Source of the DNA: a virus
Taxonomy: Duplodnaviria; Caudoviricetes
Strand: one strand, 5' to 3'
DNA: 64,000 nt
IMG/VR virus record: IMGVR_UViG_3300005582_000006
Span: 1-64,000 of that record
The notes under the pieces were generated by a model. That model saw nothing but the letters and a program-made list of their open reading frames with translations, made no database searches and was not told where the DNA came from. Of the stretch, positions 2,221 through 25,119 are shown piece after piece. The position numbers and the translations under genes were made by a program. Each line of letters starts with the position of its first letter. Position 1 is the first letter of the stretch.

Positions 2221-4020
2221 ATGTTATTAACCATTGGTATGGCTACATATGATGATTTTGATGGTGTTTATTTTACACTTCAAGCACTAAAAGCTTTTCA
2301 CAATCTAGAAGATGTAGAACTTTTAGTAATAGATACAAAGCCTAAATCTTGTGAAGACACTAAGTCAGCATGTGGAAGTGCTGGTGCTAAGTACATACAC
2401 GCTCCAGAAAAAACTGGAACATCTCAATCTAGAAATCATGTTTTTGAAATGGCAACTGGCAAATTTGTAATGTGTATTGATTGTCACATTATTTTTGCAA
2501 AAGACTCTATTGAGAAGCTTAAAGAATACTTAAAGAAAAACGAAAATACAAAAAATTTAATTCAAGGTCCACTTCTTTACGATGACCAAAAAAGCACATC
2601 TACGCATTTTGATCCAGGCTGGAGAGGTCATATGTATGGAACTTGGGGTAATGATCCTAGAATTATTTCAGAAGAAGAATTTGAAATTCCAATGCAAGGT
2701 CTAGGCGTTTTTTGCATGAGGAAAGATGCTTGGCCAGCATTCAATAAGAATTTTCGTGGATTCGGTGGTGAAGAAGGTTACATACAAGAAAAGGTTAGAC
2801 AGAATGGTGGAAAAACAGTTTGTCTTACATTTTTAAAATGGATACATAGATTTGGCAGACCAAAAGGTGTTCCATACCCACTATCTGTTGTAGATAGAAT
2901 TTTTAATTATATTATTGGTTGGACAGAAATTGGTTGGAATCATAGAGAAGTAATTAATTATTTTAGTGGCAAAGTAACGCAGGAAGAGCTATTTAAAGCC
3001 ATTAGTGATTCGTCTAAATTTATTGGTAATCCTGTTCCAATAAACTCTTCAGAAAAAAATGCAATTAAAGTTAAAGCTTATGTTATTGGAAGAGAAAGTG
3101 TAACTACTGAAGAATCATTCAAAAAGATTAAATGGACTAAAGAAAAAGAATATATGTTGGGTGCAAATTTAAAATCTGTACTAGAAAAATTTATTGCAGA
3201 AGGAAATGACTATGCTTTAATATGTAAGGGCAATTTAAGACTAGAAAAAAATATAAACATAATGATTGATTTTTGGCCACTAATTAAAACAGGTCAAGCA
3301 AAGATAACTATATTTGATCAGATAAATAAGTCATCTCTAAAGACAAAGCATTCTCAACTTTCTTATAAAATTGCAGACATTGACGAACTAGACGATGCAC
3401 CTTTATATTTTGTAAGTAAAGATTTTGCACAAAAAGTTCTAGATGATTACAAAGAAGGTGCAGAGTTCTCTTATATTTGTGAAAAAGAAAATATTATTCC
3501 TTTTCTTTACACATTTGAAGAAAACATTCTTAGACTTAGAATGCAATATGTTCCTCTACCTAATGTTGATGGTGGACTTTCAGTTGAAGCAGTAAGAGAA
3601 ATTGTTTGGGCAGCAAACAACTCGTATTGTTTAGATATAAGCTCAGAAGGTCTACAAACCACCCTTGCTCTTTGCCAAAGAGGGCTTGGGGTAGTTAGAG
3701 TAGATGAATATAAAAATCAATCTAAAGAACAATTACAAACGACTATAAAGAATTTTAGCTACGAAAACTTTATTCTTACAGACAAAACAGATGATTTTCA
3801 AGCACCAGAAGACAATCCTAGAACTCTATTAATCAACTACAAGGGGTTGTCTCAAGAACTTATTGATTTCTCATTAATAAAACAAGAAACATTCTTAAGG
3901 CCCAAAGATTGTTTGATTATAGTTAATGCAGATCAAGAAGTTGCAGATATTTATAAAAAATCTGAAAAACTTAGTGTAATTAATTCATCAGACGATTATT
4001 TAATTTTAAAGAAGCTTTAA
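2221..4020 (+). CDS. Glycosyltransferase family 2 (GT-A) with degenerate C-terminal domains
   Basis: LTIGMATYDD start, SRNHVF, CIDCH (DxD-like), and FRGFGGEEG typical of GT2/GT7-type C-terminal motifs; SD AAGGAGG. Confidence 0.8.
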   Translation: MLLTIGMATYDDFDGVYFTLQALKAFHNLEDVELLVIDTKPKSCEDTKSACGSAGAKYIHAPEKTGTSQSRNHVFEMATGKFVMCIDCHIIFAKDSIEKLKEYLKKNENTKNLIQGPLLYDDQKSTSTHFDPGWRGHMYGTWGNDPRIISEEEFEIPMQGLGVFCMRKDAWPAFNKNFRGFGGEEGYIQEKVRQNGGKTVCLTFLKWIHRFGRPKGVPYPLSVVDRIFNYIIGWTEIGWNHREVINYFSGKVTQEELFKAISDSSKFIGNPVPINSSEKNAIKVKAYVIGRESVTTEESFKKIKWTKEKEYMLGANLKSVLEKFIAEGNDYALICKGNLRLEKNINIMIDFWPLIKTGQAKITIFDQINKSSLKTKHSQLSYKIADIDELDDAPLYFVSKDFAQKVLDDYKEGAEFSYICEKENIIPFLYTFEENILRLRMQYVPLPNVDGGLSVEAVREIVWAANNSYCLDISSEGLQTTLALCQRGLGVVRVDEYKNQSKEQLQTTIKNFSYENFILTDKTDDFQAPEDNPRTLLINYKGLSQELIDFSLIKQETFLRPKDCLIIVNADQEVADIYKKSEKLSVINSSDDYLILKKL

Positions 4021-4575: not shown

Positions 4576-5226
4576 ATGGCTTCTTTTAAATATAATGTTA
4601 ACCTTGACGAACAACAATTTGCATTAGCTGTAGTAAAAGAACTAAAAGCAACTCTTCGCAGAACAATAAATCAATTAATTGTACAAATAAGGCCAAGTGT
4701 TGTTGAATATATTGAAGATAAATTAAGAAAAGGTCCAAATGATACATATAATTCTTTAAGTATTGGAAAATTGAGAGATGATTTTGGTTTTAGACCAGGT
4801 GAAAATGTTGGAGAAAGAGTTGTTAAGGCAATATCGTCATCAATTCAAATAAATGCACTTGGACCAACTTCAGCAAGTTTGGGCGGTATTAGATTATCGT
4901 TATTTAAGGGTGGTGGCATAGAATCTTTATTAGATAAAGATTTTGGTGCTTATGACTCAAATGGCAATATTGTTGATTGGCTAAGATGGCTGTTAACTGC
5001 TGGTGATACTATAGTTATTGCTGATTATGAAGTAATATATAAAGATACGCCTCGTTCAAGAAGTCGCCACGCACTAATGATTTCTCCAAAAATGTCAAAA
5101 GGATTTAGGGTAGACCCAAATCATTCCGGAACAATAGATGATAACTGGATAACTAGAGCATTAGCTGCTACAGAAGCAGACATGCTCAAGAAGTTAAAAG
5201 AAGGCTTAGAGGGATTATTAAAATGA
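4576..5226 (+). CDS. Putative neck/tail-completion protein
   Basis: Position between the head-closure-like and terminator-like genes; the C-terminal DNWITRAL helix is reminiscent of HK97 gp10-like proteins. Confidence 0.45.
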   Translation: MASFKYNVNLDEQQFALAVVKELKATLRRTINQLIVQIRPSVVEYIEDKLRKGPNDTYNSLSIGKLRDDFGFRPGENVGERVVKAISSSIQINALGPTSASLGGIRLSLFKGGGIESLLDKDFGAYDSNGNIVDWLRWLLTAGDTIVIADYEVIYKDTPRSRSRHALMISPKMSKGFRVDPNHSGTIDDNWITRALAATEADMLKKLKEGLEGLLK

Positions 5227-8817: not shown

Positions 8818-9690
8818 ATGAGTGTCACAAATAAGAAACAGTTTAAGGTGACTTTGGATAGTAAAGAAGTCGAACTTTGTGTTGTTCGACCTAATGTTAA
8901 GCAAAGGCAAGAAGGGCAAAAGATTTACAATAAGGCATTTAGAGATGCCGTTGAATCTGGTGCAATTCTTCGTGGTAAAGTCAATAATGTTATGCGAGAG
9001 CAGAATCTTTGGGATGATAACAAAGAAGCTGAATATCGTAAATTATTGGAAAAAATTAATGGGGCAGAAAGGAAGATTAAGTCTGGCGGTATTAAACTCA
9101 ATCAGGCTAAGGACTTAGCTCTTGAAATGAGGAAAGATCGTGCGGAACTTAGAGCTTTAACCTCTGAGCGATCATCCCTAGATAATAATACTGCTGAAGG
9201 TCAAGCAGATAATGCCCAATTCAATTACTGGGTTAGTTCATGTACGGTGTATTCAGAGACAGGGAAAACATATTTTAGTAATTATGAAGATTACTTAAAT
9301 AGAGATGACGATCCAGCAACTGGACAGGCAGCAGGAAGCCTTGCTATGTTGCTTTATAATCTTGATCCAGATTATGAAAAGAAACTACCTGAGAACCAGT
9401 TTTTAGCTAAATACAACTTTGTGGATGAAGAGTTGCATTTAGTTGATAAGACAGGGCGAAGGGTTGATTCTGAGGGTAGGCTAGTCAATAAGGATGGTAG
9501 GTATATTAGTGAGGCTGGTGAACTCATTGATATTCATGGTAATCGAGTTAACGAGGAAGGAGATTATGTTGTTGAATTCTCTCCGTTCCTTGATGACGAA
9601 GGTAAGCCAATCGAAGAAAAGATTGAGACTGTCAAAACAACGGCAGCACCAGAAATTGTTGTTGAAGCAGCTAAAGTTCCTGCTGAATAA
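8818..9690 (+). CDS. Putative tail assembly chaperone
   Basis: SD AGGAGG; acidic, coiled-coil; directly upstream of the TMP. Confidence 0.5.
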   Translation: MSVTNKKQFKVTLDSKEVELCVVRPNVKQRQEGQKIYNKAFRDAVESGAILRGKVNNVMREQNLWDDNKEAEYRKLLEKINGAERKIKSGGIKLNQAKDLALEMRKDRAELRALTSERSSLDNNTAEGQADNAQFNYWVSSCTVYSETGKTYFSNYEDYLNRDDDPATGQAAGSLAMLLYNLDPDYEKKLPENQFLAKYNFVDEELHLVDKTGRRVDSEGRLVNKDGRYISEAGELIDIHGNRVNEEGDYVVEFSPFLDDEGKPIEEKIETVKTTAAPEIVVEAAKVPAE

Positions 9691-9722
9691 GTCAAGAACT
9701 AAACGGACAGTATCGCATAGAT

Positions 9723-9782
9723 GGGCAGGGTTTAATCGTAGAAGTAACTACGCTTATGCTCTGCCCTTTTTTATTGAGGTAT
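9723..9782 (+). terminator. Long imperfect hairpin plus U-tract (terminator/attenuator) upstream of the TMP
   Basis: GGGCAGGGT..CGTAG-AAGTAA-CTACG..GCTCTGCCC followed by TTTTTT. Confidence 0.65.
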
Positions 9783-9786
9783 AAAA

Positions 9787-12700
9787 ATGGCTTTTAATCT
9801 GACTGCCAATTTAAATGTTGCTGTAAATAGTGGTGCTTTAAAAGCAGCAGCCAATCAAATAAATAGCACATTAGGAAGTGTGAACAGTTTAAAAATAGGA
9901 ACAAATTCTGCAACATTTGCTTCTCTTACTCCATTAAAAACTCAGCTTTCTGAGGTTACTAATTCCATAGAAAATTTTGGTAGGCAAGCTGGCTTTGCTG
10001 CTAAAAGATTTGCTGCATTTGCTGTGACTGCTGGTTCAATTATTACTTTCACTAACAACATTAGAGAAGCACTTTCTGCTGCTGTAGATTTTGATAGAGA
10101 GATGATTAGGCTAAGACAAGTCTCTGGAGATACGGCACAAGATGTTGCTGCTGTAGGTGAACAAATAACAGGTTTGTCTAAGGGTTTGGGTGTTTCAAGT
10201 AAAGATTTAGTTGGTGTAGCAGTAGTTTTAAAACAAGCTAACTTAACTCTTTCCGAAACTAAAGATGCTCTAGAGGCAATGGCACAAGCTGCTTTAGCAC
10301 CAAACTTTGATAACCTCAAAGATACGACTGAAGGTGCTATTGCTATCATGAAGCAGTTTAAGGTCGAGGCAAAGGATCTTGGTTCAGCTTTAGGTTCTGT
10401 TAATGCTGTAGCTGGCGAGTTTGCTGTTGAAGCATCAGATATTATTGAGGCGATTAGAAAGACAGGGGGTGCTTTTAAAGCTGCTGGTGGTAATTTAAAT
10501 GAGCTTATAGCCTTATTTACATCAGTACGACAAACGACAAGAGAAAGTGCCGAAAGTATTGGTACTGGCTTAAGAACTATATTTACACGAATACAAAGAA
10601 ATGATACGGCTAATGCCTTAAAAGAAATTGGTATAAATCTTAGGTATACCGCAGATGAAGCTAAAGCTTTAGGAGATGTTGGTTTAGAACAGCAATTTGT
10701 TGGTCCATACGAAGCTATTAAAAGGTTGTCCTCTGGACTTTCTGAACTAAGGTCAACAGATCCCCGATTTAGTGCCATTGTTGAGCAATTAGGTGGTTAT
10801 AGGCAGATCAGTAAGGTTATCCCACTTATTCAAGAATTTGCTACTGCACAGAAGGCATTAGGGGTAGCTCAAGCTGGTAGTGTGTCTTTGGCTGTTAATG
10901 CTGGTCAAGCACAGGATGCTCTTGCTGTAAAACTACAGAAGTTGAAGGAAAGCTTTTTTGAGGTTGGTAGAAGTATTGTTAATAGCCCTGGCTTTAGAAG
11001 TTTGGCTGATACATTCATTGGTGCTGCCACTTCGGTCTTGTCATTAATCAATTCACTTAAAGGTTTACTCCCATTATTTACTGCTCTCGCTGCTGTAAAA
11101 ATTGGTCAAAGTATTGGTTCTTTTGCCACAGGTTTTGTAAAAGGTGCTGGTGCAGATAATTCTTCTGCAAGAACAAATAAAAAAGCAGATGGCGGTTTTC
11201 TTAGGATGAGAACAGGGGGCATAGTGCCAGGGAGTGGAACTGGGGATAAAGTGCCAGCTTTGCTTGAGCCAGGTGAGTTGGTTGTGCCAAGGAGTCAAGT
11301 AAGAAGAACTAAATACTATAAAGCTGGTCCTGTAAAATTAGAAAAAGTAGGAGGTAAAAAAGATACATCGTCAATAAATACTCTGATTAATAATGATCTA
11401 GACAAAATGTTAAATAAAGAAGACACAATTTATATGGAAGTTGTAGAAAAAAAACAAAAATTATTAAGCGATGAACATAAAAAAGATATTTATTCTTCAT
11501 ATCGTTTGGAAGATTCAGATGCTGAATTGTATTCTGATCCAAATTTTCGACCAATAATGTACGCTTCTGACAACACAAAACCAAAAACAGTAATATCAAC
11601 AGCAGAAGCATTAGAGAAATATAAAACACAAAATCCAAAATTTAAAGAATTATCGATAGATTACTTAAAAAATTTAAAGAGAAAGATTGCTCCAGCAGAA
11701 GCTGCATGGGGGAAAAAATTTGAAAATATTACTCTTGAAAAATACAGTAGTACTATTCAAGCAGCTACAAGACCGACAATAAATGGCAAAATGGTTGCCG
11801 AAAGCACTTATCCAGTAGACACTGAAACAATAAGTCCTAGAAAAAGGAAATATGGAGACATTAAATTTAAAACTAGCAAAGAAGAAAATAATCATTTGTT
11901 AAGTAAACAATTAAGAGCAAAATTGTATTATAAAAAACCTGAAAAATTAGGCTTTAGTAAAAAACTAGGAGATAATGTTGATTTAGGATTATTTGAATAC
12001 TATGGTTCATATGATACAAAACAAAAAGGCAAAACCATACTAGGAGCAAAAGGAGATTTTTTACAATCATTACAAGATTTGCACAATCAAACAAAACCAA
12101 AACTTGCTCTAGGTGGACCAATCCCTCGCCAAAGATTCATGAATGGCAATAGTGTAGGACCAAAACCATTTCCACCAAATTTTTCCCCCGAAGAAATTTT
12201 AAATTTGGTCAAGGGCGTTATTCATACAGATGAAGTGATAAAGGGTGCATTTAGAGTTGCTGCAAAAATAAATCATCCAGACAAGAATCCTACTGCTAAA
12301 CCTAATGGCAACATGGAAAGAGTAAATGCTGCTCTTAGGACTTTATTAGATAGAAACATTCTTATAAGAGCAAGGGCTGAAGCTGGTCCAAAGACCACAG
12401 ATAATACTAGACGAAATACCTCACCACCACCGCCACCAAAAAGAAATGCTCAATCAGAAGATCAAATTTTTAGGGCTGTTTTTGGCGATGCTCCAACTAA
12501 AGACGAAGCAAGAAGTCAATGGAAAGGCACAAATCCAGAGACATTTACCAAACCAAATAGATTTGATAGTTTTGAAGCAGTTAGAAATGCTAGTCAATTT
12601 AGAGAAAAAGAAGAAGCAGCTAAAACAATGAACGCTTCTTCTGCATATAGTGACAGGCTAAGAAAAGCAAAAAGAGGATATGCTAATGGTGGAGATGTAG

Positions 12701-15700
12701 TTAGACAGAAATTTGCTAGTGGTAAGTTTGTTGCTAAAGATACAAAAGGAAATATTGTTCGTGATAGTGTTGATGGTGCAGACGAAGTTGAAATGGCTGC
12801 AAAGATTAGGCAGATGGGATACTTTGTTATATCTCTTGAGCTTGTTGCTGCCAAAAAAGCCTCACAACAAAAACTACAAGAAAGACAAGACAGAAGAGAT
12901 CAAGCAAAAGAAAGAGCGAAAGAACTTAGAAGATATTGGAATATGAATGAGACAGACACAGGTGACATTAATACATCTAGACCTCCAAAAAGAGGTAACA
13001 GTCTTGCAATAGAAGAATCAGAAAGACGAGAAGAAAATGCTAAAGGAATTGTTTTGTCTGGACCAAGTGGTGCTATTGCTGGAGGTATTACTGGTGCTGT
13101 TAGTGGTGCTCTTCTTGGTAATATTCCGGGGGCATTTATTGGTGGCACTTTAGGATTTGGTGCTGGAGCAGTTGGCGGTATGATGTATGACAAATCAAGA
13201 AAATCAGAAGATGAAAAAAATAAAGGTTTGGCTAGATTTTCTTATCAAGACGAACAGGGCAAAAAAGGAATTATTCCTGCTAGAGATAAAGAAGAAGCAA
13301 TAAGAAGATTGTCTTTTGATCGTATTACACCAACAAATATGCGGAGAGTTGCACCAGAAAGATCTTGGGGTGAATATCTCGAACAAAAAAGAAATGATAT
13401 TTTTGGTATAAAAAAAGCATCAATAGAAGAGACAAATAGGGAATCTCGTAGCCGTGAAAGAAAATTTAGTAAAAGCATAGGCAAAGGAGATGCCCCACCA
13501 ATAATGGTAAGGAAACCATCTAAAAAGACCAAAGAATCTAAAAAATATAGTGAAGATATATACAAGCCACTTCCTGCATTAGCATTAGATCCAACTTTAG
13601 GAAAATCAGTAGCAATCACAAAAGAAATGATGGAAGAAAGAAAAAAGGCTAGGGGTTTTGCTTCTGGTGGATTAGTACCAGGAACTGGCAATTCTGACAC
13701 AGTTCCAATGGACTTAGACGAAGGTTCGTTTGTAATTAAAAAGTCTTCAGTTAATAGCATAGGCATTGATAATTTAGCTAATGCTCACAAATTTGCATCT
13801 GGTGGTAAAGTTCCTGCATTACTCACGCCAGGTGAATATGTATATAGCCCTAGCGAAGCAAAGAAAATTGGTGCTAATAAACTTCATCAAATGAATAGTT
13901 TTGCAAAATTTAAAAAAGGTGGTGAAGTTGGTAATAGTATAGTTAGTGATACATTTTTAAATAGCCCAAACAACTTAAAGAAAATACTTTTAACATTAGT
14001 TGATCAAATAATGGAGTCAGATCCAGAAATATCAAAAAAAGATGCAAAAGCAGAAGCCACAAGAATTGTAAGTGAAATAAAAGTTCAAAATCAAACATCA
14101 AATCAAGCAATTGGAAATGTTGCTAGAGCAGATCAAGATATATCGGCAGAAAAATCAAATATTGGTGTTTTTAATAAAGAACTAAAGGGTTTTGGTAAAA
14201 CACTATCTACTTTAGGTAAAGAAGCAACTAGTTTAGCGGAAGCACTTCAGAAGAATACAGATGCAGCAGATGCTTCATATACTGCTGAATTAGAATTAAG
14301 GGCAAAGGGTACAGCAATAGTAGCTGCTAGAGATGCAAAAGTAGCAGCAGGACAAGATTTAACTAAAGAAAATACAAGGGTTGGATCTGCACAAACAAAA
14401 GTAAATGAATTAAAAGATAAAAAGAAAGACATGGAAGAGGCTAGACAAGCAAAAATAGATGCAGCAGATCAAAGAATTGCAGCAGCAGAACAAGCAAAAA
14501 TCACAAAAGAAGCTCAACCAGTAGATTTAACTCAAGAAAATAAAAGAGTTGTTTCAGCAAAACAAAAAGTCGATGATTTAAAGCAAAAAAAGAAGGACAT
14601 GCAAGAAGCGAAGCAAGCAAAAATTGATGCAGCGAGTCAAAGACTTGCAGAAGCAGAAGAAGCAAAAAGATTAAAATCTCAACAGCCAGTAAACTTAAAA
14701 AGTGAAACTGCAAAAGTTGGAAATATTACCGGAAGAATTTCTGTTCTAGAAGCAAGAAAAAAATCTAAATTAGATGCTGGTGAATCAGTTAGAGTTGTGA
14801 ATGCACAAATAGCAGAAGCAAAAAGACAAAGAGATGTATTGACAAAACAGATGGCAGATAAAACTGCTGCTGGACCTAACACAAAAAAAGAACAAGAAGA
14901 AATTGATAAAGCAAAAGAGGAATTAGCAAAAGCTAGTAAGCCATTAAAAACAAAAAACATAGACACAAAAATAATGAGAGCAGAAGATGCTCTTACGCAA
15001 GCTACTACTGCAAGAGACAACAAAGTTCCTAACACAAAAAAAGAACAGGAAGAAATCGATAAGGCGAAAGCAGAAAAATTGGAAGCTGAAAAACCATTAA
15101 AATCAAAAGCAATAGATGCAAAAATAACAAAAGCTGAAAGTGCTTTGACTACAGCAACAAACGCAAGAGATACCAAGGCAAGAACGGCAGTAGACACATC
15201 AAAAGAAGATGCACAAATTTTAAAGTTAAATCAAGATTATCAAAAACTTCTTGATGATAGAAATACAAATGCTCAAAATAGAGTGGCAATAGAAAATAGC
15301 ATTACTGCTGTTGGAACTAAACAATTAAATGTTCAAAATGAAATTTTAAAGACAGAACAAAACATAAAAGATGCAGAATCAAACATACAAAAAGCCGAAA
15401 CAGCAAAAGCAGCAGCAAAAGCATCAGGGGAAAAGGCCACTAGATCATTTCAAGTAAATGCAAAGGGTGAGATTGTAAATGAAAAAGGAAGGCCAATTGG
15501 ACAAACAAAGCCAATAACTACACCTGATTCAATAAAGCAAATTTCAAAACAAAGAGAAAAAGAATACGCTAAACAAAATGATGGTAAAGCCCCTAGAAAA
15601 AGCGAAAGAGAAGATATAAGAAGTGGAATAGTTAATGAATATAGAGTAGCAACAGAAAAACAACTTAGAGCAAAAGCACAAAAAGAAGGAAAACCTGTTA

Positions 15701-18700
15701 GCGAATTGCAAATCCAGTCTATGACTGATCAATACACTAAGCAGTTTGCTCAAGGAAAAAGAGGGGCAGTTTTTAATAAACAAGGTGAAGTAACAGGAGA
15801 TAAGTCTTTAGGATCAAAATTAATTAAAGGTGGAGATTATAAAGAAAGTGGCGATTTAACATTCCAAGGTAAGGTAAAAGATTTTGGAAGTAGAGCACTT
15901 TTTGGTTCAAAACGGACTGATTTTGAAGCTGGTTCAGAAGGAGAGAGACAGTTTAAACAAGATAGAGCATCTGGTTACGCCAATAGAATAACAACTGCTG
16001 CTGTTGGTGGATCTTTACTTGCTTCTGGAATGAGAGCAGAAGCACCAGAAGTTTCTTCTCTTGCAAAAGCAAATGAACAAGGAGTAGTTGTTGAAGATAA
16101 AGCACAGCAAGAAGCTTATAGGTCCACACTTCAATTTGCTGGTGCTATTGAAAAAGCTGGAACATATGCTGCTACTACTGCTACCGCTTTTTCGGCACTT
16201 GGGCCAGTAGGTACTCTTGTAGGCGGTGCTTTAGGTGCATTTGTTGGATTAATAAAAGGTTATGCTGATGGCACTAAAGAAGCAGAGGCACAAATAAGAG
16301 AAGTAAAGTTAGGTGCTGCACTAACAGGATTGCAAGGAACATTTGATAAATTAAATACTGGTTTAAGAACTTTTGATGATACTATTGCCGAATCAATTGC
16401 AGCAAATCAAAAAATTATTACTGAAGCAAACGCTGGAAAAGCATTCGTTGAAGCTGGTGGAGAGAAAAGTGGTTTTGATAGATTAATATCTGGAATTACT
16501 GGTGGCGGTTTTGGTGGATTTGATGTTAAAAAATTCAACGAATTAAATTCAAAAAGTCAAAAAGAAGCTGGTGCTGCACAAATAGTTCCACTTACGAACA
16601 TTTTAAATAAACAAGCCGAACAACTTGGTTCTAGTGCAGTAAGACAGGCTGGTGGAAATGCTGGAACATTAGACTATAAAGATTTTGCAGCATCATTAGA
16701 TACCAAATTAACTAGTGGCGGTGGTGGATTTAATAATGCACAAATACAAAAAATTGCTAATGCAAGAAATGTAAGCTTTGATGATGTTAAAAAAGAAATT
16801 GTAAAAGTAATGAAAGATTCTTTTAAAGCTGCACAATTAGAAAAAACTCAAAAAGAAGCAGTAACTGTAAATCAAAGATCTATAAATTCTATGGCATTAT
16901 TATCAGAAGCAGTTGTTGCTGCTGCTAATTCGGTAGAAAGTTTCTCTAATAGGTTAAGCACAAATGAGTCATTTTTTAGTGGCGGTATTGGATCAACAAA
17001 AGTAACTGGAATTTCTAATCAGTTTGATCAAAAATCAACTCCAGACTTTAATTCTTTTAATTCTGCCGTTTCTAAACTTTCTGATTCACTTGGAACTTAT
17101 GGCAATGAATTTAAGACTCAAGGAAATGCGATTAATGCAGCTTCACAAGCATTGCCTTCATTACTTGCTGGTGCAATAGAAGATCCTGTTGGTGGTCAAG
17201 ATATAGCCGTACAAATAGCTGCTGGTTTAAGAGAAGCTTTAAGTGCTCAAGGTATTAGTGGGGCTGGAGCAGATAGAGTCGTAAGTTCTGTTGCTGGAAA
17301 TGTATCTGGACAAGAATACACAAAGCTACTTGCTGAAGCTGGTGGCGATGTATCTAAAGTTGCAGAAAAACTACTTGGCAATATAAAAGACCCATTTTTA
17401 AATGCAGCTAAAGATATAAGTCAAAGATTAGAAAATGCAAGTAATCAATACATTAGTGGTTTAGAAAATTTAGCTCAAAGACAAAAACAAATTGGCGAAT
17501 CGTTTAAAAACTTAGAAAGTGCAAAACTACAGAGAGATAAGTTTACAGCAGAGACTGTTGCTACAAATGCTGGTTTGCCATCACAAGCAGGGAATTTGAT
17601 TTCAGTAGATAGACAAATGCAAGGCTTTAGAACAAATCAAGAAAGACTTACTGGAACCAAAGGAGCAGAAGCACAGGACTCCAGAGTAATTGGAGATAAC
17701 TTAAAAAGAACGCAAGAAAGAATTAGGGAATTAGAACCCAAAGTACAGAATGCTTCTGGTGCAGAAGGTGGTGGGGCTGCATTTAGAGGTGCAGCATCTG
17801 AGTTAGTTAAATTAAAATCAGAAGCTTCAAATTTGCAAGAGTCATTAAAGAATTTGGCAGATCAATCAAACAATCTTGCTATTTTGGAAGGCAAACTTGG
17901 TCAAGTAAGACAAGAAAGAGATAATGAAACTCAAAGAGGAAAAGAGTTTTTAACGGCAGATCCAAAAGAAAGACAAAAAATATTAAGAGATAGAGTTCAA
18001 GGACAAGGACTACTTAAACAAGCACAAGCTCAAGGTGGAAATGTAAGTAATTTTAGTTCTGGACAAAACAAAGCACTTTTTGCATTCTTAGATAGTTTTG
18101 GTCCAGTTGGAAAAGATATTGCAGACAACATTGTGCGTAATACTACTGGTTTAGGGAAAAAGAAACCAGAAGAAGATATGTTAGTTGGAAAATTAGCCAA
18201 AGTATATGACGAGCAAGTAAAAGCAAATCAAGAGTTAATTGGTAATCAAAGAAGTTTACAGACTGATTATTTTTCTCAGTTGACAAAACAAAATACTACA
18301 TTTTATTCAAACCTAGATAAATTTATTGCTGGCATGGAAAAAAGTCAAGTTCAAGATGAAAAAAATAGAGAAGTTGCAAAGTCTGCAAAAATAAAAGATG
18401 TTCAAGAAAAAAGTGGTTTTCTTAGAGAAGCTGGAGTAACTGATGAAAATCTAAAAGATGTTAATGCAAATAAAGGAAAAATATCAGAAGTAATAAAAGC
18501 AAGAGAAGCAGCAAAAGAAGAGGAAAAAAGATCTGTAAATATTAATGAGTCAATGAGAGAAGGTGATTTCGCACAATCTCTAGGAAGATCATTCACTAAA
18601 GATGCAAGAGAAGCAGATGCAGCAAAAGAAATTGGATCAAAAGGAGAAACATTAAATGACATACTTTCAAAAATAGGATTGACAGGAAAACAAAGCTCTC

Positions 18701-21700
18701 TAGTTCGTGAGCAAGCAACAATTGCTGTAACTCAAAATAAAGATTTAAACATAGAAGAAGCAATAAAAATAGCTATAAGACAAGTATCGGGTCAAACAGT
18801 TAATGATGCAGAAAAAAGAGTGAGTACAGCAGAAAAAGGTGCTGGAGCACTTGGCGTTAATATTGCCAATAAAGCACAAGAACAAGGAATAAGTGCAGAA
18901 AAGTTTGAATCTAGTCTTGCAGCAGTTACCGAATTAAATCAAGGTATTGGGGTAAAACTTACAACGGCAGCAAGTACTGCTACAGCAAATATTGATAGAT
19001 TATCTGCATCCATTAATAGTTTAGGGGCACAACAACAAGGTATTGCTCCAGTTAATGTAAATGCTAATCCTGCACAAGCAATTGGATTTGCAGTTGGTGG
19101 TCCAGCATTTTCCCCAAGAGGAACTGATACTGTTCCAGCAATGTTGACACCAGGAGAATTTGTAGTAAATAGAAGTGCAACACAACGAAATCTCCCACTG
19201 CTTCAATCTATAAATAGTGGAAAAACATCGTATTTAGCAGATGGTGGAGAGGTATTGGGAAAAAGAATAAAAGCATCAGAAGATGTAATGAAAATATGGG
19301 ATACCCCAGGATTAAAACAAGAAGAAAAAATAGCTTCAATTAGAAACATCATAAGCAATAAATATAATTCTCTTAAAGAGTCTTCTTTAACTAATGTTCC
19401 TAATGGAATAGAAGGCGAATCAAGAAAGTCTGCTGCTTCTGCAATATTGCAAGAGGTTATTTCATCTTTATCAATAGGTCAAATTCCAAAAAATGAAAGT
19501 GCTAAAAGGGTAATCGATAGCAATGGTGGAATTGAATCACTTCAAGATTTTGGAAATATTTTTGGTGATTTTAAAAGAAAAGGAGATACAGAAAATTCAC
19601 TAGGTTATAGAACAAAAGAAATAAATGATAATTATGAAAAAATTAAAAAAGAAATGTTAGATGAAAAGTTATTAGATCCAACAGAATCATATGAAAACTT
19701 TAAAAAAGATAATAAATATAATTATGAGTTATTATATAGCAAATATGATCCTGCAAACATAAGGACTGCCCTTAATAGTGTGATGATAGAAGCTGGTAGA
19801 GATGCAACAGTAAAAGAAAAAGTTGTTGCTGGATTACTTGGTGCTGGTTCTGCAATTATTGCTGCTCCTATCGCTATTGGTGGCGTAGCTCTTTCTGGTG
19901 CTGGAGCTTTAGGAGCGAGTATTAGTGGGGCTTCTGTTACTGCTGCTGGAGCTACAACTTATGGACTTGGAAAACTTATAATGTCAGAGTCCGCAGAAGA
20001 AAAAAAGAGAATGGATTTATTTAAATTGGATGCAGCAATAGCAGATCCAATAAACCAAGATAATACACATGGGTATTCTGCTGCTGTTTCAACAGGAGCA
20101 AATATTAAAAAGTTTGCAGATTTAGAAACATTGAATTCAAAAAAAGAATTTGCAGAAGGAATGAAAAGGATAAAAGAAGACTTTAATCATGTTTACAAAT
20201 ATGGAGTTTCTGGAAATGTTAAAACGCCAGGCTGGTGGGGAAAAACAAATGAAGAAAAAATGAATACTGATTTATTAAAAGAAACATGGTATTACAAAGG
20301 AACTAATGGTGGTGCTATAGATGTAGCAAAAGATGGCTATACATGGCCAGGTATTCAAAATTATAGTGGTGAAAAGGTTAATACTTTTATTCAGCCCCTT
20401 ATTGATAAGGCAAATGCTCCAGATCCATCAAACGCACAAAAAATAAAAAATTACTTAAAAAGAAAAAATATATCTGATAAAACATATTTAATTCCAGATG
20501 ATTTAAATGATTTAAATCAATTTATTGTAAATCCAGAATATTTAAAAAGTTTAAATGCTGCTGGCACTAAAGATATAGATGCTAATATAGATGCTAAAAT
20601 ACCACAATATATTGCAACAATAGCAAATTTAAAAGCACAAAAGAAAGACATTGTTTCAGAAAAGAAACAAGAAAATATAGTTGCCAACATTGCAAACGAA
20701 GAAGGCACAACGCCCATAGATACGCAGATAAGAATGGCAGAGAATGAGGTTCTTGCAGCAAGAGGGAATAAAGAATTAGAATCTAAGAAAAAAGCAGAAT
20801 TAGAAATATTAAAACTAAGAAGAACAAGCTATAACCAAACTGGATTAACATCTAATGAAAAGTTAAGAAATGCTTATGGTCAAAATAGACCAGAAATAGA
20901 TAAGAGCTATGTTGAATCTAAAGCTTATCTTACTCAAATAAAAGAAGGAACTGGAGAGAAGTTTGTCGCTACAGATATGGGCAAAGAAGACGAGCTTTTC
21001 TTAAAGAGACAGGGCGATGCAGGAAGATTAGCACAAATAGGTTTAAGAAGAGAAGTGCAAGCTAGTGCTATACTTGGCAAAATGGTAAAGCTAAAAGGTA
21101 TTTTTGCTAAAAATCAAGGCGAAGAATTAAACAAAAAAGAATTTGCTGAAATTGGTAAAGATCCAAATCAATTAATACCTTTAGGCTTAAAAGAATACAA
21201 TAATTTATACAGTGGACAAAAAGGAAGTTTAGCAAAAGAAGACTTTGATAATCCTAAACTTATACTTCCATTCCAAAAAGAAATTGTTGGATCTTTCTTT
21301 AAACAACAAGCAAGCACAAGATCTTTAGCAATAAGTGGTAAGGGTCTTCTTGACTTTATTGATCAATATTCAAACATAAAAGACACTAAGGGTTTTGTTG
21401 AAGCAAAGGTAAAACAAGCTGGACCAGATGCTATACCTTTAGTTGTAAGGGCGATAGAAGAAGGAAAAATAAATGCGTTGAGCGTTCTTAATGCAGCAGC
21501 AGCAAATGTTGGTGGTATAAGCAGAAAGAGCTTAGAAGGTGCTATTGGAAGAAATAAAGACTTTAATCTATTAGATAAGCTCTCCGAAAAACAAGAAGGA
21601 AAAGCACAAAAAATTGTTAAACCATTCTCTGGAATTGATTTTATAGAAGGTGAAGATGGTGCTTATGCAACTATAAAGGCAGTAAGTGGAAAAGGTCAAG

Positions 21701-24700
21701 TTTCGATGTCTGCCAATAATACCGCATTAAGAATAGCTGCTCCTTACTTGCCAAAATCAATTTATAAACAAGATATTCTTGCTGGAGAAGCATATAACAA
21801 TGATGGATTAAAAAAATTGGCTGGTGATAGACCAACATTGGGAAGTCCTAATAGCTCTTTCACATTTCCAGCAGATGGGCCAAGTCTTTTTACTACAGAA
21901 GATTTTTTAAATGCTGTAAGTAATTCACAGGGGTACGCAACTATTTCATCAAAAGCAGTAGTTGTAGAAGAAGATGTTGAAGGTAAGAAACAAAGAAAGA
22001 TTGATTATAAAAGAAATTTAGATGTTGCAAATATTGAAAATTCTAAAACTAGAGAGGCGATGAAAAATCGTTTAAAGCGTATAAATGACATAGAGGGAAT
22101 TAATAAACCGAATCAACCAGAAGAAAATAAAAATGTAGTTAAAGGAGAACCCAATGAATTTCAAGCTGCAATTATAAAAGAAAAAAATGAACAGAGTGCT
22201 CTTGCAGCTAGACTACCTAGAGCAACCAAAGAGCAACAATTATTTGAAGGCCAATACGGAGAACTAAGTGTTGAAAGTCGATTAAATAGGGGTGAAATAA
22301 CTAGAGAAGAAGCAGCAGCACAAATAGAACGACAAAGACAAGCTAGAAAAATGTCATCTGGTGGAATAGTAAACTATCTTTCATCTGGTGGTGTTCCTAG
22401 TCATAGTCCTAATCCTGATCCTTCGTTCTTTAAGCCTAAAGGTACAGATACAGTACCAGCTATGCTTACGCCAGGTGAGTTTGTAATAAATGCCTCTGCT
22501 ACTGCTAAACATGGCGATTTATTAAGTGCTATAAATAGTGGTAAAGATGTTGGATATTCTGCTACTGGTGGAATAATTTATTTAGAAGATGGTGGAGAAG
22601 CAAGAAAAAAAGCATTTTATGAAAAAATGAATAAGCGAAAAAATGACGAAGAAAAATTAAGATATTTAGTTGATGATAAAGATAAAGATAAAAATACCTA
22701 CATGCAAGACAGAAAAGATGATTTAGAATCTACTGCTAATAGGGCAACTCAAACTTTTTCTCGTAGGCAGAACCAATTTATACAAGATGAAGACAAGAGC
22801 AATAATGCTGGAACAGAAATGGTTTTTAATGCTATGGGGATGACTGGACTTGCAAAAGCAGGAATATCTGCAATTTCAAAATTTGCAATGAGTCCATCAC
22901 TTAACGCTGCTGGTCAGGGAGCAAAAAATATTGGGAAAAACTATTTTAAATACGAAGCACAAAATCAAGTGCAAAACACAGGTATAGATATTTTTAAGTC
23001 AAATGCGGAAAAATTACTTAGATATGCAAGCGGTGGATTAGTAAGTTATTTATATGATGGTGGATACTTAAAAAGAAGAGCAAACTTAGCTTCTTATAGT
23101 GGCAGTGAAAATGAATATGTTACAGATCAAGAAGAAGTTGGTAAACAAAATACGGCAAATATAACCAATAGAATAGCAGCAAAGAATCAAGCTGAAAACA
23201 ATGCATTTCAAATGTTTTCTAACATTAGATTTAATGACGGAACTGGTAGTCTTTTTGACAATACACAATCTGGATTTTCTACTGGATCTGGTGGTGTTTC
23301 TGCTCAACAAGCACTATCTTTTCAAGATCCAACTAAGCCTGGTGGAGAAGGCATAACATCAGCAGCAATGGGTATGATTGGAGATGTTCAATCCAGAATG
23401 AAGGGTAATAAAAATCCATATGGAAATATTTCTGTTACTGGTGCAGAATTAAACGAATTAAAATCTGCAAAAGCAAATGAACCAGAAATACAGAAGAGGT
23501 ATGATGAATATAAAAAGTTTATAGAAGAACAAAAAAAACAACAAGAAGAAGAATCTGGTAGTACATATGCAAGTTTGGGGGGATTGATTTATGCTCAAGG
23601 TGGACTTTATCTTCCTCGTAATAATTATAGACCATATGTTTCAATTCCAGATAGCAGTTACACAGGTAGCGGAGGTTACTTTGGTGATAATGAATCTATT
23701 AATAATGGTGGGGGTTATTTTGGTGAAAGTGGAGATAAAATAGAAAGACAACAAAAACTTTACGAAATTCAAAAGAAAAAACAAAAAAGTCCTCGTTACC
23801 TACAAGCAGAACAATATCAACAACAACAATTTCAACTTAGAAATCAAGCATATCAATCACAACAACGAAAATCGCAAAATCCTAAACGACAACAACAGCC
23901 AGAACAATGGCAAATAAATTGGCAACAACAGCAACAAGCAAGTGGATATAAAAATCCATATGCAGCATTGCAATCAAAACCAATGTTTCCAGAACAGAGA
24001 CAACAACAATCAGAAAATTTTCAAAATCAAAGGGCATATCAAGCAAAGCAAGAAATGTATGGCGGTCCTAGTGCCCAACCAGTATTTCAAGCAAGTAACT
24101 ATGCAGGAAGTTTCTTTAATCAAGTTCCACAGCAACAACAAGTAGCACAAGACCCAAAACGAAAACAATTAAGTTTGTTTAGAATGAATCTAGGGTCATA
24201 TAGTTCTGGTGGTAATGTAGATACTATTCCAGCTATGTTAACTCCTGGTGAGTTTGTAGTAAATAAACAAGCATCATCTAAAAATTATTCTTTATTACAT
24301 GCAATCAATAGTGGCAAAGAAGTTGCTAGATTTAAAGATGGTGGTAGCGTTGGAAATATTCGTGGAAGAAAAGTAGACCCAATAGAATCTGGAATAAGTC
24401 TATTAGCTGGTAAGCTATCTGGAGTTGGAAATAAATTTATTGAGAGTGGAGATTCATTCAAGACTGGAGCAAATGCTAATAGGGAAGGATCACAAAACAT
24501 ATTGGCTTCTTCATCAAAGTTTAATTCTGGAGTTGGAAGTTTTGCTGATTCTGCTACTAAAATATCAAAAAGAAAGGGCTATAATTCTGGTGGTCTGGTA
24601 AACTATTTTGCAGATGGTGGATTCACACCAAGAGGCACAGACACTGTTCCCGCTATGCTGACACCAGGAGAGTTTGTGGTAAATAGACAATCAACATCTA

Positions 24701-25119
24701 AAAATTTAAATTTATTAAAAAATATAAATGGAAATGCTAGTTATATGTCTAATGGTGGAGTTATGTATGCTAGAAGGGGTGCTTTTGTTGGAAATTCATC
24801 GCAAGACTCATCTCCAGCAATAGATATGACTTCAGTTACAGAATTAGCTAATGCAATAAGTACATTAGGAACTACATTTCTCAAACCTTTTGGTGAACAA
24901 GTAGATGCATTTAAAAATTATGCTGAAGCTTTACAAACACAAATCAATAAAATACCAACAGTAGTAAGAATAGAAGTCATGGGTAGTTTAAATGCTGCTT
25001 TAAATATTGACTTTAATCCAGATGGCGTATATACAGCGGTAACACAAGCAACGCAAGAATTACAAGGGTTTATAATTGCAGAAATAAATAAACAACTTGG
25101 AAATGATATGAGAGCATAA
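9787..25119 (+). CDS. Giant tail tape measure protein (5110 aa) with embedded cargo domains
   Basis: The N-terminal ~460 aa match the TP901-family TMP core (AVDFDREM, NAVAGEFAVEASDI, ESAESIGTGLRTIFTRI). Long Ala/Lys/Gln coiled coils; canonical position after the tube and chaperone genes. Confidence 0.9.
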   Translation: MAFNLTANLNVAVNSGALKAAANQINSTLGSVNSLKIGTNSATFASLTPLKTQLSEVTNSIENFGRQAGFAAKRFAAFAVTAGSIITFTNNIREALSAAVDFDREMIRLRQVSGDTAQDVAAVGEQITGLSKGLGVSSKDLVGVAVVLKQANLTLSETKDALEAMAQAALAPNFDNLKDTTEGAIAIMKQFKVEAKDLGSALGSVNAVAGEFAVEASDIIEAIRKTGGAFKAAGGNLNELIALFTSVRQTTRESAESIGTGLRTIFTRIQRNDTANALKEIGINLRYTADEAKALGDVGLEQQFVGPYEAIKRLSSGLSELRSTDPRFSAIVEQLGGYRQISKVIPLIQEFATAQKALGVAQAGSVSLAVNAGQAQDALAVKLQKLKESFFEVGRSIVNSPGFRSLADTFIGAATSVLSLINSLKGLLPLFTALAAVKIGQSIGSFATGFVKGAGADNSSARTNKKADGGFLRMRTGGIVPGSGTGDKVPALLEPGELVVPRSQVRRTKYYKAGPVKLEKVGGKKDTSSINTLINNDLDKMLNKEDTIYMEVVEKKQKLLSDEHKKDIYSSYRLEDSDAELYSDPNFRPIMYASDNTKPKTVISTAEALEKYKTQNPKFKELSIDYLKNLKRKIAPAEAAWGKKFENITLEKYSSTIQAATRPTINGKMVAESTYPVDTETISPRKRKYGDIKFKTSKEENNHLLSKQLRAKLYYKKPEKLGFSKKLGDNVDLGLFEYYGSYDTKQKGKTILGAKGDFLQSLQDLHNQTKPKLALGGPIPRQRFMNGNSVGPKPFPPNFSPEEILNLVKGVIHTDEVIKGAFRVAAKINHPDKNPTAKPNGNMERVNAALRTLLDRNILIRARAEAGPKTTDNTRRNTSPPPPPKRNAQSEDQIFRAVFGDAPTKDEARSQWKGTNPETFTKPNRFDSFEAVRNASQFREKEEAAKTMNASSAYSDRLRKAKRGYANGGDVVRQKFASGKFVAKDTKGNIVRDSVDGADEVEMAAKIRQMGYFVISLELVAAKKASQQKLQERQDRRDQAKERAKELRRYWNMNETDTGDINTSRPPKRGNSLAIEESERREENAKGIVLSGPSGAIAGGITGAVSGALLGNIPGAFIGGTLGFGAGAVGGMMYDKSRKSEDEKNKGLARFSYQDEQGKKGIIPARDKEEAIRRLSFDRITPTNMRRVAPERSWGEYLEQKRNDIFGIKKASIEETNRESRSRERKFSKSIGKGDAPPIMVRKPSKKTKESKKYSEDIYKPLPALALDPTLGKSVAITKEMMEERKKARGFASGGLVPGTGNSDTVPMDLDEGSFVIKKSSVNSIGIDNLANAHKFASGGKVPALLTPGEYVYSPSEAKKIGANKLHQMNSFAKFKKGGEVGNSIVSDTFLNSPNNLKKILLTLVDQIMESDPEISKKDAKAEATRIVSEIKVQNQTSNQAIGNVARADQDISAEKSNIGVFNKELKGFGKTLSTLGKEATSLAEALQKNTDAADASYTAELELRAKGTAIVAARDAKVAAGQDLTKENTRVGSAQTKVNELKDKKKDMEEARQAKIDAADQRIAAAEQAKITKEAQPVDLTQENKRVVSAKQKVDDLKQKKKDMQEAKQAKIDAASQRLAEAEEAKRLKSQQPVNLKSETAKVGNITGRISVLEARKKSKLDAGESVRVVNAQIAEAKRQRDVLTKQMADKTAAGPNTKKEQEEIDKAKEELAKASKPLKTKNIDTKIMRAEDALTQATTARDNKVPNTKKEQEEIDKAKAEKLEAEKPLKSKAIDAKITKAESALTTATNARDTKARTAVDTSKEDAQILKLNQDYQKLLDDRNTNAQNRVAIENSITAVGTKQLNVQNEILKTEQNIKDAESNIQKAETAKAAAKASGEKATRSFQVNAKGEIVNEKGRPIGQTKPITTPDSIKQISKQREKEYAKQNDGKAPRKSEREDIRSGIVNEYRVATEKQLRAKAQKEGKPVSELQIQSMTDQYTKQFAQGKRGAVFNKQGEVTGDKSLGSKLIKGGDYKESGDLTFQGKVKDFGSRALFGSKRTDFEAGSEGERQFKQDRASGYANRITTAAVGGSLLASGMRAEAPEVSSLAKANEQGVVVEDKAQQEAYRSTLQFAGAIEKAGTYAATTATAFSALGPVGTLVGGALGAFVGLIKGYADGTKEAEAQIREVKLGAALTGLQGTFDKLNTGLRTFDDTIAESIAANQKIITEANAGKAFVEAGGEKSGFDRLISGITGGGFGGFDVKKFNELNSKSQKEAGAAQIVPLTNILNKQAEQLGSSAVRQAGGNAGTLDYKDFAASLDTKLTSGGGGFNNAQIQKIANARNVSFDDVKKEIVKVMKDSFKAAQLEKTQKEAVTVNQRSINSMALLSEAVVAAANSVESFSNRLSTNESFFSGGIGSTKVTGISNQFDQKSTPDFNSFNSAVSKLSDSLGTYGNEFKTQGNAINAASQALPSLLAGAIEDPVGGQDIAVQIAAGLREALSAQGISGAGADRVVSSVAGNVSGQEYTKLLAEAGGDVSKVAEKLLGNIKDPFLNAAKDISQRLENASNQYISGLENLAQRQKQIGESFKNLESAKLQRDKFTAETVATNAGLPSQAGNLISVDRQMQGFRTNQERLTGTKGAEAQDSRVIGDNLKRTQERIRELEPKVQNASGAEGGGAAFRGAASELVKLKSEASNLQESLKNLADQSNNLAILEGKLGQVRQERDNETQRGKEFLTADPKERQKILRDRVQGQGLLKQAQAQGGNVSNFSSGQNKALFAFLDSFGPVGKDIADNIVRNTTGLGKKKPEEDMLVGKLAKVYDEQVKANQELIGNQRSLQTDYFSQLTKQNTTFYSNLDKFIAGMEKSQVQDEKNREVAKSAKIKDVQEKSGFLREAGVTDENLKDVNANKGKISEVIKAREAAKEEEKRSVNINESMREGDFAQSLGRSFTKDAREADAAKEIGSKGETLNDILSKIGLTGKQSSLVREQATIAVTQNKDLNIEEAIKIAIRQVSGQTVNDAEKRVSTAEKGAGALGVNIANKAQEQGISAEKFESSLAAVTELNQGIGVKLTTAASTATANIDRLSASINSLGAQQQGIAPVNVNANPAQAIGFAVGGPAFSPRGTDTVPAMLTPGEFVVNRSATQRNLPLLQSINSGKTSYLADGGEVLGKRIKASEDVMKIWDTPGLKQEEKIASIRNIISNKYNSLKESSLTNVPNGIEGESRKSAASAILQEVISSLSIGQIPKNESAKRVIDSNGGIESLQDFGNIFGDFKRKGDTENSLGYRTKEINDNYEKIKKEMLDEKLLDPTESYENFKKDNKYNYELLYSKYDPANIRTALNSVMIEAGRDATVKEKVVAGLLGAGSAIIAAPIAIGGVALSGAGALGASISGASVTAAGATTYGLGKLIMSESAEEKKRMDLFKLDAAIADPINQDNTHGYSAAVSTGANIKKFADLETLNSKKEFAEGMKRIKEDFNHVYKYGVSGNVKTPGWWGKTNEEKMNTDLLKETWYYKGTNGGAIDVAKDGYTWPGIQNYSGEKVNTFIQPLIDKANAPDPSNAQKIKNYLKRKNISDKTYLIPDDLNDLNQFIVNPEYLKSLNAAGTKDIDANIDAKIPQYIATIANLKAQKKDIVSEKKQENIVANIANEEGTTPIDTQIRMAENEVLAARGNKELESKKKAELEILKLRRTSYNQTGLTSNEKLRNAYGQNRPEIDKSYVESKAYLTQIKEGTGEKFVATDMGKEDELFLKRQGDAGRLAQIGLRREVQASAILGKMVKLKGIFAKNQGEELNKKEFAEIGKDPNQLIPLGLKEYNNLYSGQKGSLAKEDFDNPKLILPFQKEIVGSFFKQQASTRSLAISGKGLLDFIDQYSNIKDTKGFVEAKVKQAGPDAIPLVVRAIEEGKINALSVLNAAAANVGGISRKSLEGAIGRNKDFNLLDKLSEKQEGKAQKIVKPFSGIDFIEGEDGAYATIKAVSGKGQVSMSANNTALRIAAPYLPKSIYKQDILAGEAYNNDGLKKLAGDRPTLGSPNSSFTFPADGPSLFTTEDFLNAVSNSQGYATISSKAVVVEEDVEGKKQRKIDYKRNLDVANIENSKTREAMKNRLKRINDIEGINKPNQPEENKNVVKGEPNEFQAAIIKEKNEQSALAARLPRATKEQQLFEGQYGELSVESRLNRGEITREEAAAQIERQRQARKMSSGGIVNYLSSGGVPSHSPNPDPSFFKPKGTDTVPAMLTPGEFVINASATAKHGDLLSAINSGKDVGYSATGGIIYLEDGGEARKKAFYEKMNKRKNDEEKLRYLVDDKDKDKNTYMQDRKDDLESTANRATQTFSRRQNQFIQDEDKSNNAGTEMVFNAMGMTGLAKAGISAISKFAMSPSLNAAGQGAKNIGKNYFKYEAQNQVQNTGIDIFKSNAEKLLRYASGGLVSYLYDGGYLKRRANLASYSGSENEYVTDQEEVGKQNTANITNRIAAKNQAENNAFQMFSNIRFNDGTGSLFDNTQSGFSTGSGGVSAQQALSFQDPTKPGGEGITSAAMGMIGDVQSRMKGNKNPYGNISVTGAELNELKSAKANEPEIQKRYDEYKKFIEEQKKQQEEESGSTYASLGGLIYAQGGLYLPRNNYRPYVSIPDSSYTGSGGYFGDNESINNGGGYFGESGDKIERQQKLYEIQKKKQKSPRYLQAEQYQQQQFQLRNQAYQSQQRKSQNPKRQQQPEQWQINWQQQQQASGYKNPYAALQSKPMFPEQRQQQSENFQNQRAYQAKQEMYGGPSAQPVFQASNYAGSFFNQVPQQQQVAQDPKRKQLSLFRMNLGSYSSGGNVDTIPAMLTPGEFVVNKQASSKNYSLLHAINSGKEVARFKDGGSVGNIRGRKVDPIESGISLLAGKLSGVGNKFIESGDSFKTGANANREGSQNILASSSKFNSGVGSFADSATKISKRKGYNSGGLVNYFADGGFTPRGTDTVPAMLTPGEFVVNRQSTSKNLNLLKNINGNASYMSNGGVMYARRGAFVGNSSQDSSPAIDMTSVTELANAISTLGTTFLKPFGEQVDAFKNYAEALQTQINKIPTVVRIEVMGSLNAALNIDFNPDGVYTAVTQATQELQGFIIAEINKQLGNDMRA
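14356..15170 (+). repeat. Tandem coding duplications in the TMP coiled coil (168-nt and 153-nt periods)
   Basis: DLTKENTRV, DLTQENKRV and NLKSETAKV start at 14356, 14524 and 14692; PNTKKEQEEIDKAK starts at 14875 and 15028. Confidence 0.8.

Follow-up and report, generated by a model that had tools for sequence, protein, structure and literature searches.

A giant tape measure protein (TMP) gene in the virus record IMGVR_UViG_3300005582_000006 (Duplodnaviria; Caudoviricetes) encodes seven copies of a module of about 55 amino acids (aa), which we tentatively read as an ancient TMP junction or docking node; its role would be structural. The stretch of DNA analyzed, here called the window, comprises the first 64,000 nucleotides (nt) of that record, which is a virus contig of 76,246 bp with a CheckV completeness of 51%. 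TMPs set the length of the tail, are ejected first, and form the DNA channel, yet they are among the least understood parts of the tail, and almost none of their length has been resolved structurally.

The gene lies at 9787 to 25119 on the plus strand, as do the other features of the window given below. In the list of open reading frames (ORFs) it is 15,333 nt long, and its translation has 5,110 aa. A Pfam scan placed PhageMin_Tail (PF10145) at aa 125 to 337 (E value [E], 1.2e-23), an NCBIfam scan placed tape_meas_TP901 (TIGR01760) at aa 87 to 423 (E = 6.2e-27), and TMP PHROGs matched the 5,110-aa protein at about E = 1e-25. Judged by these matches, the product is a giant tail TMP, and its first 460 residues are the TMP N-terminal domain. 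At 1.5 Å per residue, a protein of 5,110 aa would correspond to a tail of about 770 nm (about 0.75 µm).

Seven modules and their Gly-Gly motifs

An earlier note on this DNA, made from the sequence alone, had listed seven repeated modules in the TMP. Six of these match the pattern [VI]P[AM].L..GE where the note had placed them, at aa 489, 1342, 3116, 4223, 4814, and 4954 (nt starts 11251, 13810, 19132, 22453, 24226, and 24646). The seventh, near nt 13696 (aa 1306), is degenerate, reading DTVPMDLDEGSF, and was recovered by a profile made from the seven copies (domain E = 3.5e-20). Among the variants are GK in place of D(T/K) in the copy at 13807 and DTIPA in the copy at 24220. A scan such as the note had suggested, made with the seven-copy profile on the 577 ORFs found in all six frames of the record (76,246 bp), recovered all seven modules and placed them only in the TMP; the next ORF had an E value of 0.27.

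The modules divide the protein. Module 1 (11191 to 11382, aa 469 to 532; domain E = 1.2e-14) has a paired Gly-Gly (GG) motif, then GDKVPALLEPGELVV, and an atypical helix part. Directly upstream of it is a hydrophobic Gly-rich stretch (11035 to 11166, aa 417 to 460), of which aa 417 to 435 are transmembrane (TM)-like by the Kyte-Doolittle scale. Two orphan motifs follow, LALGG (12103 to 12117, aa 773 to 777) and, from the motif scan, YANGG (12679 to 12693, aa 965 to 969). Module 2a (13657 to 13806, aa 1291 to 1340) is the degenerate copy and has an "EGSFVI" subtype; module 2b (13792 to 13929, aa 1336 to 1381) has a "KVPALLTPGEYVY" subtype, and one FASGG is common to the two. Module 3 (19087 to 19254, aa 3101 to 3156) has a domain E value of 9e-28. 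Pattern and profile both identify the remaining three: module 4 (22351 to 22602, aa 4189 to 4272), in which the GG motif is doubled on both sides; module 5 (24199 to 24351, aa 4805 to 4855); and module 6 (24580 to 24765, aa 4932 to 4993), the last node, 117 aa before the C terminus. Between modules 4 and 5 are two orphan paired motifs, YASGGLVSYLYDGG (23023 to 23064, aa 4413 to 4426; from the motif scan) and ASLGGLIYAQGG (23569 to 23604, aa 4595 to 4606). The C-terminal tail that follows module 6 (24766 to 25116, aa 4994 to 5110) is, by analogy with other TMPs, the presumed tip-docking end.

GG motifs are enriched in the TMP, and all 16 pentapeptides that the note listed are present. Compared with 2,000 shuffles of the TMP sequence, there are 56 GG dipeptides versus 38.2 ± 5.8, 26 [FYLMIVW]xxGG motifs versus 9.7 ± 3.1 (maximum, 21), and 16 of the strict motifs [FYLM][ASKEN][SDNKVQT]GG versus 1.0 ± 1.0 (maximum, 6). 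A hydrophobic residue occupies position −3 in 25 of 51 GG runs, although the hydrophobic composition of the protein is 25.5%. Outside the TMP the strict motif occurs once in 71 ORFs (19,685 aa), with 2.0 ± 1.4 expected. The pairing of GG runs that the note described is real, at spacings of 7 to 9 residues: the pairs at aa 4192/4201, 4416/4425, and 4935/4944 are 9 apart, those at 469/477 and 4261/4269 are 8 apart, and that at 4598/4605 is 7 apart.

The architecture of the node was defined with relatives of this TMP. The seven-copy profile was run against 1.84 billion cluster representatives, and the best 150 matches plus this TMP contain 803 modules (3 to 10 per protein; mean, 5.3), of which 704 are full length and were used for the conservation figures. 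The node begins with [FY]-A-x-G-G, which is present in about 70% of instances and is often doubled, 9 residues apart (e.g., MSSGGIVNYLSSGG). A Pro/Gly/Ser linker of 4 to 20 aa leads to the core, G-T-D-T-V-P-A-M-L-T-P-G-E-F-V-V-N, and this is followed by ten variable residues. The last part consists of L-x-x-[IM]-N, about five residues, and [YF]-x-x-G-G, and the whole node is about 55 aa long. Within the core, D is conserved in 95% of the modules, P in 97%, A in 95%, L in 97%, G in 100%, E in 96%, F in 89%, and V in 95%; in the helix the values are 96% for L and 94% for N, and for the downstream GG pair they are 95% and 92%. The module is among the most conserved short elements of TMPs, and it is found in phages of Proteobacteria, Actinobacteria, and cyanobacteria.

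Structure prediction was another suggestion of the earlier note. For a single module, AlphaFold2 (AF2) predicted only a helix, with a predicted local distance difference test score (pLDDT) of 64.9, which is low, as a monomer. For the tandem pair 2a-2b a hairpin and a helix were called in each half, also at low confidence (pLDDT, 56.1), and no fold was matched. The low confidence of the monomer models fits an element that needs partners. A complex prediction with three copies of the module, made with the alignment of a 47-sequence module profile (A2), scored 0.02 and carries no weight either way. An AbrB-like swapped hairpin and an SH3-like half barrel were considered; these were resemblances that no tool supported, and both were dropped.

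Relatives of the module and their divergence

Proteins with the module are numerous. At E ≤ 1e-3 the seven-copy profile matched 20,589 protein clusters, at E ≤ 1e-10 it matched 5,667, and at E ≤ 1e-30 it matched 1,005; the profile scores suggest that the roughly 1,000 clusters in the last group carry several copies each. The best 150 matches are 1,156 to 7,872 aa long and are mostly giant TMP-like proteins. In these 150 relatives the first module starts at a median residue of 525 (interquartile range [IQR], 485 to 575), the last module ends at a median of 146 aa from the C terminus (IQR, 120 to 171), and the spacings between modules peak at 200 to 400 aa and at 1,000 to 1,300 aa. Megablast with the TMP gene found no match among 50,697 phage records. 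At the protein level, tblastn with one module found 264 records of isolated phages, named mostly for Mycobacterium, Gordonia, Nodularia, Brevundimonas, Ralstonia, and Burkholderia. Among the 40 matches listed of these 264, all lie in annotated TMP genes except one, which is in a hypothetical protein of a Synechococcus phage.

Single copies of a related motif near TMP C termini, which the earlier note had mentioned, were found both in lambda gpH (below) and in eight single-module TMPs (841 to 1,437 aa) among 77 IMG/VR loci, where the module is 32 to 38 aa from the stop codon. In 76 of the 77 loci the modules are confined to one ORF. The sole locus with modules in two ORFs has them in L030:3-7019 and L030:9377-11104, about 2.3 kb apart, possibly because its TMP gene is split or interrupted. 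The note had also spoken of cargo shuffling, and domain matches did not back the idea of cargo: in a Pfam scan of 13 giant relatives, PhageMin_Tail was found in 10, and otherwise there were only single matches to EF-hand, Peptidase_M78, and C19orf12. What lies between the modules of the giants is therefore not enzymatic as a rule.

No Pfam family covers the module, and searches of literature text outside supplements and subscription journals returned no description of the motif or module. Proteins of this class are known; three things appear undescribed, namely, that the module is a discrete unit, that it is homologous to the junction region of lambda, and that giants with multiple nodes form a large family.

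The profile A2 was searched against the sequences of the Protein Data Bank (PDB). It matched residues 732 to 785 of the 853 residues of lambda gpH (E = 4.1e-6; hhalign probability, 92.3%; domain E = 4.8e-10 in a four-protein search), and by these scores the module is homologous to that region. Both keep the series FATGG, GEFVF, helix, YATGG. In gpH, as at module 1 here, a hydrophobic stretch (691 to 722 in gpH) is followed by GG motifs and the module, and a C-terminal tail comes last in both proteins. The gpH module is situated between the hydrophobic Gly-rich stretch in which gpH is cut and the helix at the C terminus with which the tail tip is plugged. The two proteins differ in that gpH has one copy and not seven, and in that it has KYEPAGIV in place of the D-T-V-P-A-M-L consensus. 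Pfam Tape_meas_lam_C covers gpH residues 627 to 701 and ends before the module, and TIGR01541 (tape_meas_lam_C) covers residues 472 to 813 as one block and does not match this TMP.

A2 also matched gp16, the TMP of mycobacteriophage Douge (PDB 8ZDO; E = 6.2e-12), which has two significant copies, the best stretch being at 963 to 1030 and the second at 1412 to 1459. The match to the Chi TMP was not significant (E = 0.054). The TMP of Gordonia phage Sidious has three copies and that of Mycobacterium phage Aminay has one. Compared with the TMP studied here, these actinophage TMPs (Douge, Sidious, and Aminay) are smaller, at 1,400 to 2,200 aa, and carry only one to three copies.

Comparison of the seven copies with each other indicates what is being conserved. 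Within the gene the copies are 66 to 84% identical in DNA, and the longest exact match is 13 nt. Of the 8 to 15 core codons that are translated identically in two copies, 2 to 8 differ. Because synonymous codons differ while the peptide is fixed, it is the peptide that is conserved; selection holds the node as protein sequence, not as DNA. Moreover, the best paralog of a module was outscored by modules from 131, 142, 120, 69, 66, 42, and 12 of 150 other proteins (modules in order), and the best matches listed for each module, a list that left out the nearest relatives P0005 and P0014, are mostly at corresponding positions in the relatives. By this comparison all seven nodes have separate orthologs among the other giant TMPs, and therefore the copies have undergone no recent gene conversion. 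The tandem of two module subtypes is conserved in 34 of 151 proteins, a set that includes P0001, and both orders occur in the pairs listed.

The earlier note had placed the motifs at segment boundaries, and in homologs their positions do coincide with the edges of conserved and variable segments. When the 150 relatives are aligned to the TMP by BLAST, conserved islands appear at aa 1 to 500 and at the modules, and few relatives align in between. Of the 357 ends of 225 long high-scoring segment pairs (141 proteins), 133 were no more than 20 aa away from a GG mark or the edge of a module, with 13.4% expected; these ends are not independent. The closest relative, P0005, is 96% identical at aa 2 to 512, 874 to 2912, and 3590 to 3986, and is 17 to 25% identical at aa 513 to 780, 3262 to 3589, and 4608 to 4766 (23% in the last). 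Several of these edges coincide with module 1, LALGG, or the YAQGG pair or lie shortly before module 5. LALGG is the right-hand edge of a segment that is swapped relative to both P0005 and P0036. A third relative, P0126 (1,156 aa), is unrelated to the TMP in its first 428 aa and then is 70 to 80% identical to it from exactly residue 4192, the start of module 4. As far as these alignments indicate, variable segments start and stop at nodes.

A Gln-rich low-complexity segment (23764 to 24156, aa 4660 to 4790) lies between the orphan pair at aa 4595 to 4606, which is the left-hand edge of this variable region, and module 5.

Possible roles of the modules

We tentatively favor a structural junction or docking node, because the GG motifs, which read x-[DNS]-G-G-h-V, look like tight turns. 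The core D-T-V-P-A-M-L-T-P-G-E-F-V-V-N would form a beta-hairpin and, together with the amphipathic helix, a binding element whose folding is confined to the lumen of the assembled tail. The partner of this element might be other TMP chains, the tube or a ring of the distal tail, or an assembly chaperone, and the x-(D/N/S)-G-G pieces would be the turns or hinges beside it. In an ordinary TMP a single node would anchor the tip-proximal end. In a giant TMP the iterated nodes would keep successive sections of 200 to 1,700 aa in register within a ruler of about 0.75 µm, and they would also mark places at which one section can be swapped for another. A cut next to a node, like that in lambda, might accompany such a docking role but would not be required by it. 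Thermus phage P23-45 offers a precedent for a ruler of this length: according to PMC10770324, its gp96 is a 5,002-aa TMP in an 800-nm tail, has a fused virion RNA polymerase, and is uncut in virions. It is in the same size class as the TMP studied here but belongs to a different lineage, has one strict GG motif, and lacks the module (best E = 0.065; no P..L..GE match), and it is therefore silent on cleavage at nodes.

Several observations weigh against this interpretation. No partner for the node was found among the data examined, and both AF2 models have low confidence; a Foldseek search of the PDB with the tandem-pair model returned nothing at E ≤ 0.001. The module is not resolved in any structure: only the last 30 to 40 TMP residues are ordered in tail tips (lambda 818 to 849, Douge 1658 to 1699, 35 residues in T5, and 921 to 956 in T1). 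The TMP of Nodularia phage 2AV2 (3,404 aa) has two modules, both in its N-terminal third, and thus a node need not be tip proximal. That breakpoints cluster at nodes might simply be due to conserved islands amid fast-evolving sequence. Finally, the sole experimental fact near a module is proteolysis, that of lambda gpH to gpH*, and this fits processing equally well.

The nodes may instead be processing sites, as the earlier note had proposed, although we regard this as somewhat doubtful. The [FY]xxGG motifs would be cut by a phage or host protease, or by self-cleavage triggered by assembly, so that the TMP would become seven or more pieces after assembly, and the core would be a recognition or retention element. 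What speaks for it most directly is lambda. According to PMC12617516, an unidentified protease cuts gpH to gpH* and gpHC at an unmapped site in the Gly-rich region near its C terminus; gpHC remains in the tail tip, and gpH* is reported as 78 to 79 kDa. By mass calculation that size puts the cut at about residues 710 to 731, next to the start of the module at 732, and a cut after FATGG (residue 737) would give 80.1 kDa. The T5 TMP, pb2, is likewise cut after a hydrophobic stretch, at R1127, and its C-terminal piece stays in the tip (PMC10038345). In addition, GG motifs bracket almost every module, the downstream pair is 92 to 95% conserved, and the nodes are at segment boundaries.

Several observations speak against processing. 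Adenain, pS273R of African swine fever virus, and the C39 peptidases that remove double-glycine leaders have consensus sites that end in GG, and those sites share with the TMP motifs an upstream hydrophobic residue. In the published consensus of PLpro, LXGG, that residue is at P4, but in h-x-x-G-G (e.g., F-A-S-G-G) it is at P5. No Prok-JAB (PF14464), Peptidase_C39 (PF03412), or Peptidase_S78 (PF04586) domain was found at E ≤ 1 in the 76-kb record, which is weak evidence, the record being 51% complete. The GG motif is not enriched outside the TMP, and the 15-residue core is conserved far beyond the needs of a cleavage signal. The segments are never separate genes in the 77 loci, L030 apart. T5 is the only TMP with a mapped cut, but that cut follows R1127, not Gly-Gly, and no T5 chain is among the module-profile matches at E ≤ 1.

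We also considered, and dropped, self-cleavage at the D-T that is conserved in the core. The aligned residues in lambda are Y-E, and hence D-T self-cleavage would not explain the lambda cut.

A bolder form of processing, which we think unlikely, would make every node a maturation junction of the gpH*/gpHC type. The TMP would then be a polyprotein of the tail lumen that, once the tube is assembled, is cleaved behind [FY]xxGG to give at least seven pieces, and these would be ejected into the host in order, some of them with effector-like parts (such as the J-domain-like stretch described below), and the hairpin-helix core would hold the pieces until ejection. If this were true, the same motif should mark the gpH cut, at FATGG (733 to 737) or YATGG (778 to 782).

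We hold it decidedly improbable that the nodes are sites of chaperone docking or tube nucleation, where a tail assembly chaperone (an analogue of gpG/gpGT) or the first tube rings would bind, long rulers needing several such sites for solubility and for restarting polymerization. The canonical single copy is at the tip-proximal end, where tube polymerization starts; AF2 does not give a stable monomer of the module, an outcome suggestive of folding upon binding; and a possible chaperone pair (8818 to 9690 and 9494 to 9784) precedes the TMP gene. These upstream ORFs have no family match, however, and the prevailing view is that a TMP is coated by chaperones over its length and not at discrete sites.

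That the repeats are kept as DNA-level crossover points for segment shuffling, as the earlier note had also raised, is very improbable and, as a reason for their conservation, largely refuted: similarity breakpoints between relatives do fall at node edges, and fragment shuffling in phage proteins is surveyed in PMC10684548, but the copies have no exact match above 13 nt, their synonymous sites differ freely under a fixed peptide, and each node has its own orthologs.

The position of the module in gpH leaves two or three candidate sites for the lambda cleavage, which was first reported in 1974. Giant TMPs, with their iterated nodes, lend themselves to the question of how rulers of 0.5 to 1.2 µm stay in register, or are processed and delivered. 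Node edges are natural seams, which would be useful for altering tail length or for grafting domains into the TMP of a laboratory phage.

Other parts of the TMP and neighboring genes

A J-domain-like stretch with an HPD tripeptide is present at aa 804 to 856 of the TMP (12196 to 12354). Pfam DnaJ matched it with an E value of 5.2e-5 and 23.7 bits, below the cutoff of 27.8, and NCBIfam DnaJ_bact matched it at E = 0.0026; phmmer against the PDB returned only designed-repeat artifacts. If real, it would be a co-chaperone domain that is ejected together with the TMP.

The coiled-coil part of the TMP contains two tandem duplications, one at 14336 to 14671 (two units of 168 nt, 77% identical) and one at 14875 to 15176 (two units of about 150 nt, 74% identical). 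This repetition suggests that the TMP has lengthened through internal duplication. Glycine-zipper, TM-like stretches occur at 13069 to 13194 and 19819 to 19986 (Gly-zipper_Omp, E = 0.011; Kyte-Doolittle segments) and may be membrane-inserting parts.

The TMP gene is flanked upstream by overlapping ORFs and downstream by five large ORFs, all on the same strand and all lacking a PHROG match; ten neighboring ORFs were searched against PHROGs, and none matched. A Pfam scan of 18 neighboring ORFs gave only subthreshold matches, one glycosyltransferase domain excepted, and these scans pointed to no candidate for a protease or a partner. Directly upstream of the TMP gene, the ORFs at 8818 to 9690 and 9494 to 9784 overlap, the second being in the +1 frame, and they may be a tail assembly chaperone frameshift pair. 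The glycosyltransferase domain is of family 2 (E = 5.7e-13) and belongs to a 599-aa ORF at 2221 to 4020, within the presumed block of structural genes. The record itself begins inside a stretch coding for Thr/Pro repeats (ACN/CCN repeats), which belongs to an ORF that is open at its 5′ end (1 to 1140).

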